A stretch of DNA of 11,684 nt from a virus (lineage: Duplodnaviria; Heunggongvirae; Uroviricota; Caudoviricetes). Below, in pieces: positions 689 through 8,785 of this stretch. The translations under genes and the position numbers were made by a program. Position 1 is the stretch's first letter; every line of letters begins with the position of its first letter. A model generated the notes under the pieces. That model saw only the letters and a list, made by a program, of their open reading frames with translations. It was not told the DNA's origin and made no database searches. The DNA lies in IMG/VR virus record IMGVR_UViG_2585427784_000006; one strand, 5' to 3'.

Positions 689-1264
689 CTACGGCAGTGC
701 TGGCCATTCAATATCCTGTGCAGTTGACGTATCAACACGGTTCAGCAACACCCGATACTTTTTCCAGGCTTCCAGCAATGAGGTTTCTTCCTCCGTTGCG
801 ATTTCCAGATCTACAGCATCCTGAAGTGGCGCAATATGCTCACTGGCTACCTGCATCAGGCTGTTTTTTGTTTCTTCCGCCTCTCGGATCCGGAACAGTT
901 TTTCTGCTTCTGCATCTTTCACCCAGGCTGTGCCGTTCCACTTCTGAAACTCCCCTTCCGGCGATAACCAGGTAACATTTTCCGGTAACGGACCGAGTTC
1001 AGAAATAAATAACGCGTCCCCTGACGCTACGTCATAAACCGTTTTACCCCGATGGTCTTCATCGAGATGCCACGATGCCTTATCACTGTTGAAAACAGCC
1101 ACAAAGCCAGCAGGAATATCTGGTGGTGCAATATCGGTACTGTTTGCTGGCAGACCTGTATGAGGCGGAATATATGCGTCACCTTCACCAATAAATTCAT
1201 TAGTTCCGGCCAGCAGATTATAAATTTTTATGGTCCGTGGTTGTTCACTCATTCTGAATGCCAT
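689..1264 (-). CDS. tfaQ: Tail fibre assembly protein (Tfa family)
   Basis: Track ORF 689..1270 begins at a TTG; first ATG is at 1262-1264, giving 191 aa starting [18 protein letters not shown], which I recognise as lambdoid Tfa. Its start overlaps the end of a short upstream stf-like frame, as at stf/tfa junctions. Confidence 0.85.
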
Positions 1265-1325
1265 TATCAAGGCTGTTCAGATTGCGGATGGCATTCTCAA
1301 GCCCCTTCATCCCACACCTCTTTAC
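1245..1325 (-). pseudogene. Possible 3'-terminal remnant of a side tail fibre (stf) gene
   Basis: A 26-codon open frame ([26 protein letters not shown], stop TGA at 1245-1247) ends 15 nt inside tfa, the overlap expected of stf/tfa. Upstream it is closed by a stop at 1326-1328, directly beside the stop of the preceding head-tail gene. Positional inference only. Confidence 0.3.
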
Positions 1326-1999: not shown

Positions 2000-3985
2000 T
2001 TACGCCGTACATTTCACCAGGCCGCGGTGATCAACTGGCGCAACACCAGCGTCAATACGCACTTTCGTTGTCACGCCATCCACACTGAAGCCCTCCATCT
2101 GATCAATATATGGCGTATCCACACCGTTGAGATAAGCCACTTCAATCGTATCGGAGCCTTTGGACGCAGCCAGGTAGAAGGTGGTCTGGCTGTTATCATC
2201 AAGACGAGGCTCTGCAATAACGGTCGCAAAATCTTTCACCGGGTTAATAATACCGGCGTTAATGTCAGCCCCCTTGACACTTGAGGAGCGAATGACCTGG
2301 TTAGCAACAGACTCCATCGCCGTCGGTACCAGTACGAACGCAGGACGAATATTCAGATGACGCTCACCCTCTTTCTGAACGCGCATCAACTGGCGGGCTT
2401 TATCCAGCGATGCCACGTCCATTGCCGCGCTCTCCAGTACGTTTGCATGTTTCGCTTTATCGAACAGACTTACATTATCTGTGGAGATTTTCGGGTTAGA
2501 CGTCAGAATGGCATAAACCAGATCGGCAATAGTGGATTTCGCCGCACGGCCCAGCTTCATCGGGACATCGGTCAGCATATTCAGATCATCATTGATAATG
2601 GCCTGACGGGTGATACTGAACAGCTCGCCATAGGTCGCCAGTGCAATAGTGGCCTGTTTATCTCCGGTGGTGACGTATTTATATTCTGCCCCTTCACGCA
2701 CCTGACGCAGAGCACTGAAGCCCCCCATACCCACACGATGGGCAATTTTAAAATCAGACAACTGACCTTTCCGCGTCCACTGTTCATAGGTTTCAGGGGC
2801 ATCTTCCCAGCCCTGCAGAATGGCTTTGTTCGCAACATCCAGCAGAATATTACCGAAGTCAGACGTACTGTGTGTGAACGCCGCACCGACCATCTGCATC
2901 GGGTTATAACTGGAAACACCAATACCACGTTCAGTCAGTGACATACGGGCATATTCACGCAGGGTCATCCCGTTGTAGACATTATCACGTTCAGTTTTTT
3001 CAAACCCGGCGCGCGCCATCAGCGCCTGGCGGATCCCGTCCCCCACAAAATTACCGTTACCGGCATAAATATGAGCCGGGGGATTTTTATTGGATGGCGT
3101 GGACTCGCGCCCCATCTCGTTCAACAGCTTTTCGCGGGCCTGCTCCAGCGAACATTCAGGATCGGCAAGACACTGAGCCTGCAACGACTGATAGCCGGTC
3201 ATGGCATCCATAGCTGGCTGAAAATATTCACCGCAGTGCGGACATGGCCAGTACCAGCGGCGGCGGTCACCACGATTGTAAAGGGAAAGAATACCAGTCG
3301 TCGGTGGCGCTTCATGAGGCGACTTACGTCGCCATTTGCTGTCGCAGATGTCACGTCCCGGCGAGCTCTCCACCAGAGTCATCCCGGCGGACATAAATGT
3401 GGTGGTACGTTTTGAGGCCAGGGAGAAACCATCACCCTCGCTGTCGATATTCTCCGGAAAACGGTCGTAATCGGTTAAGGCGACAAACCGGTAATCCGAC
3501 GACGACATAATGTTGACCGAGGGCCAACCAATTTTAAGGAACGAGCCATCCCTGAACGTCTTATCATGGACATTATTGTCGTTACGACGTGGACTCATTC
3601 TTTTCTTTACCGCCGCACTGCTTCTGAACGTTCTGTCGAGGCGCTTTTTAGAATGCTCGCGGGCCTTATCTTCGGTCATCTGCACAACGAGCATGTCCGA
3701 AGGATCGCAAACGATGGTATAGACAATCCATCCATCGATCAGACCAATGGTCTTCCCTGTTCGCGCAGGACCAACAAAAATCACCGCATCGTATTCACGC
3801 GATGCCAGGCAGTTCATGGGCTCAATGATGTAGGGTGTCAGTTCAGGATCCCATGGCACCGAGTTACCAGCCCCCTTGGGAACACGCATGAATTTTTTAA
3901 CAGCCTCCGAAATCGGCATGCGACGTGGTGGGGAAAATCCTGCCGATATGTCCCTTCCCAAATTTCGGGCTGATGAAAAACCCAT
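2000..3985 (-). CDS. Terminase large subunit (lambda gpA family N-terminal ATPase); identity of the C-terminal half uncertain, possibly capsid-derived
   Basis: 661-aa ORF, ATG at 3983-3985 preceded by AGGAGG, TAA at 2000-2002. First ~290 aa align by eye with lambda gpA: Walker A-like VGPARTGKT and a WYWPCPHCGEY ... CLADPEC zinc-finger region. The remaining ~370 aa is Ala/Ser/Thr/Val-rich and looks capsid-like rather than nuclease-like. Confidence 0.7.
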   Translation of the reverse strand: MGFSSARNLGRDISAGFSPPRRMPISEAVKKFMRVPKGAGNSVPWDPELTPYIIEPMNCLASREYDAVIFVGPARTGKTIGLIDGWIVYTIVCDPSDMLVVQMTEDKAREHSKKRLDRTFRSSAAVKKRMSPRRNDNNVHDKTFRDGSFLKIGWPSVNIMSSSDYRFVALTDYDRFPENIDSEGDGFSLASKRTTTFMSAGMTLVESSPGRDICDSKWRRKSPHEAPPTTGILSLYNRGDRRRWYWPCPHCGEYFQPAMDAMTGYQSLQAQCLADPECSLEQAREKLLNEMGRESTPSNKNPPAHIYAGNGNFVGDGIRQALMARAGFEKTERDNVYNGMTLREYARMSLTERGIGVSSYNPMQMVGAAFTHSTSDFGNILLDVANKAILQGWEDAPETYEQWTRKGQLSDFKIAHRVGMGGFSALRQVREGAEYKYVTTGDKQATIALATYGELFSITRQAIINDDLNMLTDVPMKLGRAAKSTIADLVYAILTSNPKISTDNVSLFDKAKHANVLESAAMDVASLDKARQLMRVQKEGERHLNIRPAFVLVPTAMESVANQVIRSSSVKGADINAGIINPVKDFATVIAEPRLDDNSQTTFYLAASKGSDTIEVAYLNGVDTPYIDQMEGFSVDGVTTKVRIDAGVAPVDHRGLVKCTA

Positions 3986-3993
3986 TATTCCTC

Positions 3994-4521
3994 CTAGAGA
4001 CTCTCTCCTTCCTCATCAGGAATTAATTCAGCAGCACAAGCCTCGTAGGATTTTTCCTGAAGAGTGTATCGCAGGTCATCAATGGCCTGCTGTACAACGC
4101 CGACGGCCTGAGGAGTCAGGGCGCAATCGCGTTCAAGAACATCCGGAATTGTCTCCAGAACCTGGACGACAGCCTTTCTCATGGACGAATAGACGATGAC
4201 TACTTCATCAACTGGGATGAGTTTTCGCTGCTCCTTTTCCAGCTTGATCCTTTCATTTTCAGACTGGTACCAGTCCTTTCTCTCTTTCGGCTCCATACGG
4301 GATGGATCATGAACAGAGTCTGCTGCCTCATGCTTCACACTAAACAGGGCGGGCCCGACATGCTGCAGGGCGTAAACGGGGTTCCCCCTGACAGTCGCAG
4401 CCACAGGAGTGTTGGCCGCGAGGAGCCGTTTTTTTACTGTGTCCCGGTGAAGCCCAAAGGCCTCGGCGATTTTAAAAACACTCCAGTAATAAGCATCACC
4501 GATCCCGCTCACATTTGACAT
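3994..4521 (-). CDS. nohA: Terminase small subunit (lambda Nu1-like, NohA family)
   Basis: Two in-frame ATGs, at 4531-4533 and 4519-4521; the second has a GGAG at good spacing and gives MSNVSGIGDAYYWSVFKIAEAFGLHRDTVKKRL, an N-terminal HTH like Nu1. Stop TAG at 3994-3996 lies inside the RBS of the large-subunit gene. A cos site lies ~185 bp upstream. Confidence 0.8.
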   Translation of the reverse strand: MSNVSGIGDAYYWSVFKIAEAFGLHRDTVKKRLLAANTPVAATVRGNPVYALQHVGPALFSVKHEAADSVHDPSRMEPKERKDWYQSENERIKLEKEQRKLIPVDEVVIVYSSMRKAVVQVLETIPDVLERDCALTPQAVGVVQQAIDDLRYTLQEKSYEACAAELIPDEEGESL

Positions 4522-4533
4522 AAGCAACTCCAT

Positions 4534-4724
4534 CTGGCAGGTGAAAATCAGGTTTATTTATATATTTCAATTAATTGCAAACTGGTCTAATGACAGGGAG
4601 AAAAAAATATTGTACAGGTGAAAAGAGAAATAACTTTTAATTATCAATAAATTACCAAACATGCTGCCGCCGCCATGGAAATGCAAAAACTAGTCTTTTT
4701 CCGCGACGCTCCCGCCCCGTGGCA
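4534..4724. other. cos site: cosN-like core plus cosB-like TerS/IHF binding region
   Basis: Minus strand reads CGGGTCCTCCCAGTGGGGGTCCCTGCCACGGGGCGGGAGCGTCGCGG, close to the lambda cos junction as I recall it (...CGGGTCCTTTCCGGTG...TTACGGGGCGGCGACCTCGCGG). The 12-mer aligned to the lambda cohesive end is + 4706..4717. Between it and terS: IHF-consensus TATCAATAAATTA at 4642-4654 and two exact direct repeats CAGGTGAAAA at 4538-4547 and 4615-4624. Confidence 0.7.
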
Positions 4725-5083
4725 GGGACCCCCACTGGGAGGACCCGACAGCCTGACAACCGTGACGAGCATCTGAAACAGAGCTTTACATAATGGCATG
4801 GGGATAATTCAGAAGGACATCACAGCATGCCCACACAAATTAGTGTGAGTGTCCTGTTTCTTACTACGCGCAGGACTGACGAGCATGAGGGGAAAATACG
4901 CGAACCGAAATGCCTTATCTTCAGAAATGCAGCCGGCATCCGAACTGGACGATATTGTAAATTCACCTAAATACGAGGCATTGCTGTAGTTGAATTGCAG
5001 TACTGTATTAGCCTTACAGTGACAGAATACGATATTGACTCTGTCACTTGTGAAATGGTCAGAATGGTTAGCAGTTATGGTGA

Positions 5084-5290
5084 TCAGTCAACCACCAGGG
5101 AATAATCCTTCGTATTCTTATCGTGCTTTACTAACGCGGCCTCAATTGCCCTGAATGCTTCCAGAGATACTTGATGTTCTATACATGCAATTACAACATC
5201 CGGGTAACCCATCGAAATGGTGCTATTAAGCATAGTTTTTACACGAACCTGCTCCTGGGAGGGGGCATCAGTGTATTGATCTTTATGCAT
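5084..5290 (-). CDS. Conserved lambdoid right-arm small protein (homologue of the ~68-aa ORF near the lambda right end)
   Basis: 68-aa ORF, ATG at 5288-5290 with GGAG upstream, TGA at 5084-5086. Protein (..[46 protein letters not shown]) and the first ~150 bp downstream closely match the lambda right-end sequence as I recall it. Confidence 0.6.
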
Positions 5291-5759: not shown

Positions 5760-5931
5760 CATTTCCTCTTTTAGTCTGTTATGACTGTCCTGGTACACAG
5801 TAGTGTCAATTATATGGAGCAAACGTATAAAAGATAAGATGAAACATCGCAATAATCAACATACGACGGTCTAAATTTCACACAAACAGATAAAGATGAT
5901 TATCATTTATTATCAATGCATTAGAATCAAA

Positions 5932-6162
5932 TCAATTCAAGAGTCTCATTGCTGCTTCCAGAATTTCTTCTGAAGTTACATGTCGATCCGCTGCTACATA
6001 AATGACTTTATGATCTCCGGTCAGAGATGGAAACCCTGCGGCCATTACAGTAAGGTATGTTTTTTCGCCATTTGGATATTCACGCATGATGGTGTTAACT
6101 CCAGTCATCGCTGGCACTACCACTGCTGGTTCAGAGTTAAAAAAAACTATGATTTTTTTCAT
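5932..6162 (-). CDS. ynfN: Small protein, YmcE/YnfN-like (cold-shock-associated partner of gns genes)
   Basis: Track ORF 5932..6204 begins at a TTG; ATG at 6160-6162 gives 76 aa starting MKKIIVFFNSEPAVV. Sits between cspI and gnsB as ynfN does in Qin. Symbol assigned from memory of length and synteny; weak RBS. Confidence 0.45.
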   Translation of the reverse strand: MKKIIVFFNSEPAVVVPAMTGVNTIMREYPNGEKTYLTVMAAGFPSLTGDHKVIYVAADRHVTSEEILEAAMRLLN

Positions 6163-6433
6163 GATGTTACCGTAGTATGTGAGTATCCATCGAATAGATA
6201 CCAAGCAAAAAAGCTCCCGAAGGAGCCTTCATTTTCACTTTTTTAAATCCAACGACAGACGGCTGGCATTTAAGTATTGTGAAATATTATCAAATGTAAT
6301 CATCATTGATTTACAAAAGATACATTTTGCCCCGAAAGGATTCATGTCAGAAACATCAAAAGATGATGTTCTATACTGGGAACCATGACAACACGGGCAT
6401 CTAAAGTGAATATGGTTTGTAATATTGTCTACC

Positions 6434-6646
6434 TCAAAGCGCCACTACATGAACAGCGGCAGGACCTTTAGGTCCGTTCTCAATACCAAATTCAACTTCC
6501 TGATTCTCAGTTAATGTTTTGAAATCGTTGCTCTGAATTGCTGAGAAATGGACAAACACATCTTTGCTGCCATCTTTCGGCGTGATGAAACCAAAACCTT
6601 TTTCAGGGTTAAACCATTTCACTAAACCAGTCATTTTGTTAGACAT
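6434..6646 (-). CDS. cspI: Cold shock protein (CspA family)
   Basis: 70-aa [41 protein letters not shown]... with RNP1 (KGFGFI) and RNP2 (VFVHF) motifs. ATG at 6644-6646 in an AAAAGGTAATAAT-ATG context typical of cspA-family genes. Sequence matches my memory of CspI. Confidence 0.9.
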
Positions 6647-7009
6647 AATTATTACCTTTTGAAGAAATTAGCCCTTGGGCAGAATGGTCCGAAAAAAAAT
6701 ATCAGAGAGAAAAACCAACAAGGAAATCTCAAGAGGTACAAATAATAAAATTATAACAATGACTGCTTCAGATAAATTTGTAACAAACCAGAACACCATT
6801 AACGCATGATTAACCACCCATAGCAAGGATTACTTTTGTAAAGAAAAAAACAGCAATGAAAGAATAGCTTTATTTATTAATAATAACGTGTCATTCTGAT
6901 TAAGACCTTTTATCTTACCCTTAAGATTTCAGGAATTTTGGCTCATGGAAGAGTCCTTTTTATTTAAATTTTACATTCCGCGATGTAAATGTTCCGATTT
7001 AATATTACC

Positions 7010-8033
<1,024 letters not shown>

Positions 8034-8037
<4 letters not shown>

Positions 8038-8345
8038 ATATATTTATGATGAGGACGCTCGTGCTTATTGGCAGGATTTTCAATCTTAAAGGAGTACTGA
8101 TGCTGCAGATAAGACTCAACTTTTTCTGACAATTTTTCTGCTACTTCCAGGAAGACTTGCCGGACGCTCCTTCTGGCTGCTGCCTCATAAAACTCCAGCG
8201 CAGCTCCTTCAACACGGTCCATGGCGACATCCAGGTCAAAAATTTCACCGTCAAAGCGTTCCTTGTCCTGTAAGGCTACAGTTACCGTAACTTTATTCTC
8301 AAAATTACGGACTCCTTTCACAACCAGTTCATAGTCTTGAGTCAT
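8034..8345 (-). CDS. ydfR: YdfR-family protein of unknown function, encoded between holin and endolysin
   Basis: 103-aa ORF MTQDYELVVKGVRNFENKVTV..., ATG at 8343-8345 preceded by GAGGAGAG, stop overlapping the endolysin start. Matches my memory of K-12 YdfR. Confidence 0.75.
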
Positions 8346-8349
8346 TGGA

Positions 8350-8565
8350 TTACTCTCCTCTCGCAGCCTTACGCCTGTCTTCTTTAATCTTGAAATAAAG
8401 ATTTGTCAGATACGTCAGCAGGCCAAAAACCAGGCTACCCAGCACACCGATTGCAGCCCACTGTGACGGAGTTACTTTATCGAGTAACTGCAATGCCCAG
8501 AAACCAGCATTCCCCGCCGATGTGCCATAGGCAACACCTGTTGTTAACTTATCCATTGATTTCAT
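8350..8565 (-). CDS. essQ: Class II holin (S21-like pinholin)
   Basis: Track ORF 8350..8643 has an upstream extension; ATG at 8563-8565 preceded by GGTGAGGA gives 71 aa [71 protein letters not shown] with two transmembrane segments and a basic C-terminus. Pairs with the SAR endolysin. Confidence 0.85.
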
Positions 8566-8785
8566 ATCCTCACCCCGATGTACACGGATGGTGCAATATG
8601 TTTGAAAAAGATCGGAGTCTACGGGGTAGTTTTGACAGCACACGTTGTTCTCAACGGCGCTAAAGAAACATACACATTAAAAATGTGAGTAATTATTTTG
8701 AAAGAAAGTCATATATAAAATAATAATACGAGAAATGTTTTCATATTTAGTGTACTGTATACGGCCATTTATACAGGAAAAGCCT

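Follow-up and report, generated by a model that had tools for sequence, protein, structure and literature searches.

In E. coli, the late region of a decayed lambdoid prophage of the Qin type contains two cold-shock genes, cspI and cspB, and these are very probably Qin-type genes expressed from cspA-type promoters through cspA-type thermosensor leaders. The prophage makes up the window, by which is meant the whole stretch of 11,684 nucleotides that was analysed. The system itself, csp genes of the Qin prophage with a cspA-type thermosensor leader, is already known. The genes, their location in the prophage, their long leaders and their cold induction have been published, and RNA-thermometer behaviour has been in the literature since 2025. 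According to the proposed mechanism, each gene would be transcribed from its own cspA-type promoter, made of a weak -35 element and an extended -10 element, TGnGTTAAT. At 37 °C, the leader and about the first 40 nt of the coding sequence would form one long stem-loop masking the ribosome-binding site and the AUG. Both would be exposed in the cold by a register-shifted fold, and translation would go up.

A preliminary description of this DNA, made from the letters, had counted three CspA-family paralogues within 3.6 kb. Two of them, cspI and cspB, are intact, and the third, a cspF-like gene, turned out to be a pseudogene. The coding sequences and the elements that directly accompany them are as follows.

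6434-6646, minus strand: cspI coding sequence, 70 aa (ORF list, RefSeq annotation, Pfam CSD match of 108.4 bits)
9320-9535, minus strand: cspB coding sequence, 71 aa (ORF list, annotation, Pfam CSD match of 109.1 bits)
6235-6423, minus strand: ynfQ, encoding a YmcF-like small protein, 62 codons with an ATT start (Pfam PF23641, 109.9 bits; annotated ynfQ/ymcF)
6207-6227, minus strand: terminator-like hairpin GGCTCC-TTCG-GGAGCT followed by T6 (read from the sequence; the same stem was called on the plus strand by the scan)
9834-10035, plus strand: cspF-like pseudogene (aligned with K-12 cspF; compared with K-12 and phage 2H10)

CspI and CspB have the make-up of CspA-family proteins, each being a single CSD of about 70 residues that scores above the Pfam cut-off (PF00313, 27 bits). 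With the NCBIfam models of the CspA/CspG type, the two proteins reach 127-144 bits, and both contain the RNP1 motif KGFGFI and the RNP2 motif VFVHF. Taken together, promoter, leader and coding sequence of cspI are identical to those of K-12 at 403 of 403 positions. The corresponding region of cspB matches K-12 at 419 of 422 positions, with three differences. The ynfQ gene begins 10 nt past the cspI stop codon. It is probably co-transcribed with cspI, and the hairpin at 6207-6227 is likely the end of the cspI-ynfQ unit. Pairs made of a csp gene and ymcF are widespread in Enterobacteriaceae.

The cspF-like gene has suffered three lesions. Its start codon at 9834 is CTG in place of the TTG of K-12 cspF, a frameshift results from the lack of one T, present in K-12, between 9910 and 9911, and a stretch of about 255 bp that K-12 and phage 2H10 possess is missing past 10035, and with it the last codons and the stop codon. 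The 51-aa product as encoded gave no match to the Pfam CSD model, so that an intact CSD reading frame is not found here. A CSD match of 62.3 bits and a match of 135.7 bits to the NCBIfam CspF model are obtained with a hand-repaired translation only, in which the RNP motifs are degenerate (KGLIFP and AQLHV), as they are in K-12 CspF. RefSeq flags the same cspF gene as frameshifted in strain SCU-102. As judged from its sequence, the cspF-like gene is dead in this copy.

The leaders were considered by scanning the whole window against Rfam, where the cspA thermoregulator, RF01766, has a gathering threshold of 78 bits. A match of 112.8 bits was obtained for cspI (6792-6407, covering the complete model, positions 1-428) and one of 158.8 bits for cspB (9696-9304, also the complete model, 1-428). 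The starts of the model, at 6792 and 9696, correspond to long 5′ UTRs of 146 and 161 nt, respectively. Thus, the search for cold-box similarity to the cspA 5′ UTR that the preliminary description had called for gives a positive answer for cspI and cspB, both above threshold. The cspA-like leaders announced there for all three genes are found in front of these two, where their motifs can be aligned with those of cspA and cspG; upstream of the cspF-like gene, none was detected in the Rfam scan of the window. The corresponding features are listed below, the promoters being putative.

6647-6791, minus strand: cspI 5′ UTR, a cspA-type thermosensor leader of about 145 nt (Rfam match; PMC6719143; PMC13271884)
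9536-9696, minus strand: cspB 5′ UTR, a cspA-type leader of about 161 nt (Rfam match; 160 nt in PMC6719143)
6798-6826, minus strand: putative cspI promoter, with -35 TTGCTA at 6826-6821, a 17-nt spacer and extended -10 TGcGTTAAT at 6806-6798
9703-9731, minus strand: putative cspB promoter, with TTGCTT at 9731-9726, 17 nt, and TGaGTTAAT at 9711-9703 (aligned with cspA, cspG and cspI)
6777-6789, minus strand: cspI cold-box-like 5′ hairpin GGTTTG-TTACAAA, aligning to the first RF01766 hairpin and degenerate with respect to cspA, cspB and cspG
9689-9679, minus strand: cspB cold box TGAAGAACAGA (from the alignment)
6671-6680, minus strand: cspI pre-SD hairpin GCCCAAGGGC, counterpart of GCCGAAAGGC in cspA, cspB and cspG
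9564-9555, minus strand: cspB pre-SD hairpin GCCGAAAGGC (from the alignment)
6644-6658, minus strand: cspI SD and start context AAGGTAATAATTATG, with AAAGGTAATACACTATG as the cspA counterpart

In an alignment with K-12 cspA and cspG, cspI and cspB share a promoter of the form TTGC(T/A)(T/A)-17 nt-TGnGTTAAT, the last element being TGgCTTAAT in cspA. They also share the GGTTTG at the transcript start followed by the cold-box hairpin, the motif AAGCAG, a GCC(G/C)AA(A/G)GGC hairpin before the SD and an AAGG SD. The AAGGTAATAATT-ATG context that had been pointed out for cspI is indeed present (6658-6644, minus strand). On the whole, the two leaders have in common with the cspA thermosensor (RF01766) the cold-box hairpin, the GCC-loop-GGC hairpin, the AAGG SD and the pairing of the leader with the 5′ part of the coding sequence. 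The cspI leader differs from that of cspA in being shorter (145 versus 159 nt), in its degenerate cold box and in a middle part that is AU-rich and diverged.

Conservation of the cspI upstream region was evaluated on loci found through relatives of YnfQ/YmcF. Fifteen cspI-type upstream regions were aligned, from six genera (Escherichia, Citrobacter, Salmonella with arizonae and diarizonae, Intestinirhabdus, Scandinavium and Kosakonia). The motifs CTTGC, TGCGTTAAT and GGTTTG are unvarying in all 15, and the arrangement TTGCTA-17-TGCGTTAAT (6826-6798) can be aligned with the promoters of cspA, cspB and cspG. The transcript starts would lie at about 6791 for cspI and about 9696 for cspB. The cspI position follows from the start of the Rfam match at 6792 and from the UTR length of 145 nt cited in PMC6719143, a secondary source for this figure, where the 5′ UTR length in cspA, cspB, cspG and cspI amounts to 159, 160, 155 and 145 nt, respectively.

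The same source describes a cold box and cold induction for CspA, CspB, CspG and CspI (PMC6719143). More recently, the leaders of cspB, cspG and cspI have been characterized as RNA thermometers by DMS-MaPseq of the K-12 RNAs in vitro (PMC13271884). At 37 °C, a large stem-loop takes in the entire UTR together with some of the coding sequence, and hides the RBS and the AUG. At 10 °C, a shorter, register-shifted stem-loop frees both (PMC13271884). It was also remarked in that study that the cspB UTR resembles that of cspG, whereas the cspI UTR is divergent from both (PMC13271884); the lower Rfam score of cspI and our identity figures fit this remark. Because the cspI region of the window is identical to that of K-12 and the cspB region differs from it at 3 of 422 positions, the published K-12 results apply to the window. 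From this identity and from the covariance-model match, we infer that the thermometer mechanism would operate here as well. Equilibrium folds calculated at 37, 15 and 10 °C kept the SD paired throughout and did not reproduce the published cold conformation.

The 5′ ends of cspI and cspB had been described as almost identical. This is correct for the first 39 nt of the coding sequences, 36 of which match, and for the 27-mer AAACCATTTYACTAAACCAGTCATTTT, found exactly twice in the window when none would be expected from 200 shuffles. It does not extend to the remainder, since the two coding sequences are 69.4% identical overall and their longest exact run is 17 nt.

6611-6637, minus strand: shared 27-mer in cspI, codons 4-12, in the downstream-box region
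9500-9526, minus strand: shared 27-mer in cspB (pattern search)
6758-6768, minus strand: cspI leader segment AAGCAGTCATT, complementary to the 5′ coding sequence (AATGACTGG...) in MFE folds

The 27-mer codes for the N-terminal peptide (K)MTGLVKWF, identical in both proteins, and, in the folds, supplies the 3′ strand of a long-range helix with the leader. For both mRNAs, MFE folding pairs nt 10-45 of the coding sequence with the 5′ part of the leader; in the cspI fold, AAGCAGUCAUU (6768-6758) pairs with AAUGACUGG. The leader motif AAGCAG is kept in all four paralogues. Such a pairing between leader and coding sequence is part of the Rfam model, as it is of the structure published for 37 °C.

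It may be envisaged that the identity of the 5′ ends reflects protein constraint alone, through the 13-residue peptide, with no role at the RNA level. In this sense, the first 13 residues of CspI and CspB are all identical, as compared with 35 of the next 53, and synonymous codons are shared only slightly in excess: among identical residues that offer a choice of codon, 7 of 10 have the same one in codons 1-13 and 16 of 35 afterwards, a trend that is not significant. Compensatory changes are also nearly absent from the leader-CDS helices. Against this explanation, the codon excess goes in the same direction in all six paralogue pairs, the region pairs with the conserved AAGCAG motif in the folds of both genes, and both the Rfam model and the published probing (PMC13271884) take this part of the coding sequence into the 37 °C structure. 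Protein constraint as the whole explanation is considered rather doubtful.

Comparisons with related leaders bear on the RNA side of the question. Across 12 relatives, helix 2 of the leader-CDS pairing remains paired at 82.5% and helix 3 at 71.2%. When the MFE structure of the window is projected on these relatives, it is 70.6% paired versus 33-51% in shifted controls, a score that is inflated because the structure was derived from the window sequence itself; the shuffle control was unimpressive, and the result is modest at best. RNAalifold applied to the 12 leaders yields a weak consensus of -6.6 kcal/mol, with two pairs showing compensatory change. The helices barely vary, and this accounts for there being almost no covariation in them. 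In our reading, the identity of the 5′ ends is mostly due to protein constraint, to which some constraint at the RNA level is added.

The phage setting of the two genes is well defined. The preliminary description had placed the csp genes inside the late region, and a lambdoid late region is indeed what surrounds them, as supported by the following Pfam matches and annotations.

10211-10963, minus strand: Q antiterminator (ydfT/quuQ), at the start of the late region (Pfam PF03589, 181.5 bits)
8350-8565, minus strand: P21-type holin (Pfam and annotation)
8034-8345, minus strand: ydfR, in the lysis cassette (annotation)
7504-8037, minus strand: phage lysozyme (Pfam and annotation)
7010-7507, minus strand: DUF2514, Rz-like spanin (Pfam and annotation)
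3994-4533: DUF1441, small-terminase-like (Pfam)
7010-8565, minus strand: lysis cassette separating cspB from cspI (Pfam matches and annotation)

Many E. coli chromosomes match bases 5800-10400 at 99.4% identity, and the annotation there reads ynfN, ynfR, ymcF/ynfQ, cspI, rzpQ, rrrQ, ydfR, essD, ynfU, cspB, cspF and ydfT. At least 80% of this 4.6-kb segment is found in one place, with the arrangement intact, in about 1,594 of 5,426 complete E. coli genomes. A search with the left 5.6 kb of the window retrieved no complete E. coli genome having its arrangement. The gene order is that of the cryptic prophage Qin of K-12 (where cspI, cspB and cspF are b1552, b1557 and b1558), with Q, a cspF divergent from cspB, the lysis genes, cspI, ynfQ, ynfR, ynfN and gnsB. 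The window differs in that cspF is a pseudogene, about 255 bp including ynfS being gone beside it. The left part has also decayed differently, the window having a terminase-capsid fusion ORF and no stfQ.

Morons are found at several places in lambdoid late regions, stx between Q and S, and bor after Rz in lambda. cspB has the Q antiterminator on one side and the holin on the other, and cspI is flanked by the spanin gene and the packaging genes, both spots being typical of phage accessory genes. The gene order of the window also occurs in the isolated phages Tritos (98.7% identity), 2H10, PhiR42_1 and HannyBb. For most phages with a match to the lysis cassette, the match is limited to that portion of the query; Tritos and 2H10 carry the csp genes. 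Like morons, the csp genes lie between conserved phage modules, and some related phages have them while others do not. The likeness to lambdoid morons includes the two positions (Q-to-holin and Rz-to-packaging), carriage by viable phages, and the presence with each gene of an apparent promoter of its own and a terminator-like hairpin, from which it may be supposed that the csp morons have their own promoter and terminator. The cargo of the window differs in consisting of cold-shock RNA chaperones with thermosensor leaders rather than virulence or exclusion factors.

The genes cspB and cspI are direct repeats, 2.9 kb apart, so that an exchange between them would delete the lysis cassette. The near-identical 5′ ends had been seen as a substrate for homologous recombination between morons. 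Efficient RecA-dependent exchange in E. coli generally needs roughly 20-30 bp, and the longest exact run available here, 17 nt in coding sequences that are 69.4% identical, falls below this. The predicted product was built by joining the cspB upstream region and the first 39 nt of its coding sequence to cspI from nt 40 onward and ynfQ, which makes 677 nt. A search with this chimera found no recent cspB x cspI recombinant in the 5,426 complete E. coli genomes, the product of coverage and identity nowhere exceeding about 0.65, and the intact arrangement is kept in the roughly 1,594 genomes mentioned above. That the 5′ ends act as an active RecA-dependent substrate deleting the lysis cassette is, therefore, very unlikely, and as a substrate they are weak at best. 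This is so in spite of the common orientation of the two genes and of the 36 matches in the first 39 nt. Two other observations also speak for exchange: its product would have the order of the chromosomal cspH-cspG-ymcF-gnsA island, and leader types and gene-body types are variously combined in Citrobacter. A breakpoint test within the cspG coding sequence speaks against it (p = 0.23). As an ongoing process, recombination is unsupported; as ancient history, it is plausible.

The best match of the 677-nt chimera is a single 577-nt alignment of about 75.6% identity at the cspG-ymcF locus, found in 5,156 of the 5,426 genomes. The island cspH-cspG-ymcF-ymcE-gnsA, to which this locus belongs, can be aligned with Qin in three collinear blocks of 72-77% nucleotide identity. 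In the first one, the segment from cspF to cspB has its counterpart (76%) in cspH, the intergenic region, the leader and cspG up to nt 115. The second extends from nt -4 of cspG through ymcF and corresponds to cspI to ynfQ (75%), and the third relates gnsA to gnsB (73%). Sliding identities follow the same distribution. In the leader, cspG is closer to cspB (50/60 positions) than to cspI (24/60). Over the 3′ half of the coding sequence and downstream of it, the values are 43-46/60 and 38/60 for cspG with cspI, versus 35-39/60 and 24/60 for cspG with cspB. A maximum-chi-square breakpoint within the cspG coding sequence is not significant (p = 0.23), the ratio of cspB-like to cspI-like sites being 10:5 to the left of the split and 10:22 to its right; because of this result, the argument for a mosaic rests on the flanks rather than on the coding sequence.

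In contrast with Qin, the island contains no lysis genes or other phage genes, and ymcE replaces ynfR-ynfN. Its neighbours in the core chromosome are gfcA and yccM, and its GC content is 41.1%, as compared with 50.7% and 52.4% in the flanks. The split phage layout is also present in prophages of Citrobacter and Yokenella. CspI-type bodies are accompanied by cspI-type leaders in Salmonella and several Citrobacter, and by cspB/G-type leaders in the Citrobacter loci L013, L015 and L016, which combine a leader sharing 82-86% identity with that of cspB and a protein sharing 86-91% with CspI. These mixed types point to past recombination of leaders and bodies in the csp family. The comparison suggests that, if the event ran in this direction, the most economical route from a Qin-like layout to the cspG island would be a single exchange involving a cspB-type and a cspI-type gene. 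Tentatively, it may be imagined that the island, which about 95% of complete E. coli genomes possess, is the fossil of a Qin-like prophage in which an exchange within or just before the first 115 or so nt of the coding sequence deleted the lysis cassette and kept the cold-shock cargo.

Finally, the promoter assigned here to cspI is not the one initially proposed. The preliminary description had chosen a TATAAT at 6755-6750 on the minus strand, leading to a leader of about 100 nt. The hexamer is present as described.

6750-6758, minus strand: TATAAT with TGt in front (6758-6756), an extended -10 by sequence, located inside the leader

Promoters with an extended -10 can work without a -35, and the perfect TATAAT after TGt does make a full extended -10, TGnTATAAT. 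Nevertheless, a scheme in which this site is the cspI promoter, or a second, internal one, and produces a leader of about 97 nt without a cold box is highly improbable: the promoter scan found no acceptable -35 hexamer 16-18 nt from the TATAAT, as a sigma-70 promoter would have; the site lies inside the RF01766-matched region beginning at 6792 and inside the 145-nt UTR cited in PMC6719143; the hexamer varies among relatives, in which the upstream promoter keeps its core motifs unchanged; and the 97-nt transcript would be without the leader strand needed for pairing with the 5′ coding sequence. In 14 related leaders, the hexamer site reads AATAAT, AGTAAT, AATATT, AGTATT or AGTCGT. It should be kept in mind that the simple promoter scan misses cspA-type promoters, whose -10 is GTTAAT, as well as the TATAAT site, and cannot decide between them. 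With a transcript start at 6791, as deduced from the Rfam start and the 145-nt UTR, the TATAAT falls within the transcript, at 36-41 nt from its beginning. Being internal, devoid of a -35 and not conserved, it is unlikely to be the cspI promoter, and the leader length becomes about 145 nt; at most, a weak secondary start may be conceived of at this site. The idea that the TATAAT is kept for pairing with the AAUAAUUAUG start region was also tried and dropped, the surrounding helices being kept at only 46.7-71% across relatives.

For the prophage itself, these results are mainly of use for annotation, the promoter and transcript start of cspI being placed about 48 nt further upstream than had been thought and the third paralogue being dead in this copy. 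On the evolutionary side, the core-genome cspG island resembles a mosaic of the cspB/cspI type and may merit a short follow-up. If the proposed derivation is true, the 5′ coding sequence and the leader motifs would at least once have provided a joint for recombination, and the leader and gene-body modules of the csp family would have been reshuffled more than once. If the mosaic holds, the cspG island would offer a compact case in which phage cargo has been retained and the lysis genes have been lost.

Immediately downstream of cspI, the window carries three small minus-strand features.

6235-6423, minus strand: ynfQ, a YmcF-like gene (PF23641, 109.9 bits)
6227-6207, minus strand: terminator-like hairpin, GGCTCC-TTCG-GGAGCT followed by T6, read from the sequence
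6167-6232, minus strand: ynfR, an annotated gene of 21 codons (MKAPSGAFLL...)

The start codon of ynfQ is ATT, located 10 nt past the cspI stop codon, and the 62-residue product carries cysteine pairs arranged as CPCC...CIFC. The hairpin overlaps the first codons of ynfR; thus, transcription of ynfR from the cspI promoter would need read-through of this hairpin. Relatives of YnfQ were confirmed at 143 sites in a collection of species-representative genomes, and nearly all of these sites carry the label Enterobacteriaceae. Eighty loci were kept, and about half of them have a csp gene directly upstream of the YnfQ relative. Enterobacterial csp-ymcF loci were also found on contigs labelled Veillonella parvula, Mucilaginibacter and Chryseobacterium (L009, L056 and L073, respectively). 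The V. parvula-labelled contig carries a Qin prophage with YnfQ and CspI proteins that match those of the window at 100% identity. The three labels probably reflect binning or contamination errors in public records.

Two further features are found on either side of cspB and the cspF remnant.

8735-8956, plus strand (opposite to the flanking holin gene and cspB): ORF that carries two CxxC pairs
10081-10104: strong 10-bp hairpin, AAAACCCGC-TTAT-GCGGGTTTT, flanked by Q and what is left of cspF, with T-runs on both strands

The ORF is a third small accessory gene of the late region; at the corresponding position in related genomes, ynfU (171 nt) is annotated as encoding a putative zinc-binding protein. 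The 10-bp hairpin accounts for weak Rfam rnk-leader matches at the same position. It may act as terminator for a short late leader RNA, in the manner of lambda tR', for cspF, or for both.

The left end of the window contains the following features.

2000-3985, minus strand: fused terminase-capsid ORF of 661 aa, with PF05876 and PF25209 matches
723-921, minus strand: full-length match to RF02111 (IS009; Rfam, 226.7 bits; threshold, 117)

In the fused ORF, the large-terminase ATPase domain (PF05876) covers residues 40-263 and the phage capsid domain (PF25209) residues 363-658, an arrangement that looks like an in-frame internal deletion, with loss of the remaining terminase, the portal and the protease. 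The RF02111 match lies wholly within tfaQ, a tail-fibre assembly gene (689-1270, minus strand). The leftmost 5.6 kb of the window does not occur at a single site in any complete E. coli genome of the collection, the best coverage being 77%.

The prophage genes have a collinear counterpart on the chromosome. The order cspF, cspB-5′ joined to cspI-3′-ynfQ, then gnsB, corresponds to that of the cspH-cspG-ymcF-ymcE-gnsA island (K-12 locus L004, 964-2241; L007, 4274-6040). The GC content of this island is 41.1%, versus 50.7% and 52.4% in its flanks. A synthetic cspB/cspI chimera aligned to the island as a single piece in 5,156 of 5,426 genomes.

Exchange among paralogues is indicated by the csp-ymcF pairs of three Citrobacter loci (L013, L015 and L016, about 4590-5190). 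Their Csp proteins are 86-91% identical to CspI, and their leaders are 82-86% identical to the cspB leader versus only 66-68% to that of cspI. The association of a CspI-like protein with a cspB-like leader shows that csp paralogues have swapped leader and gene body.
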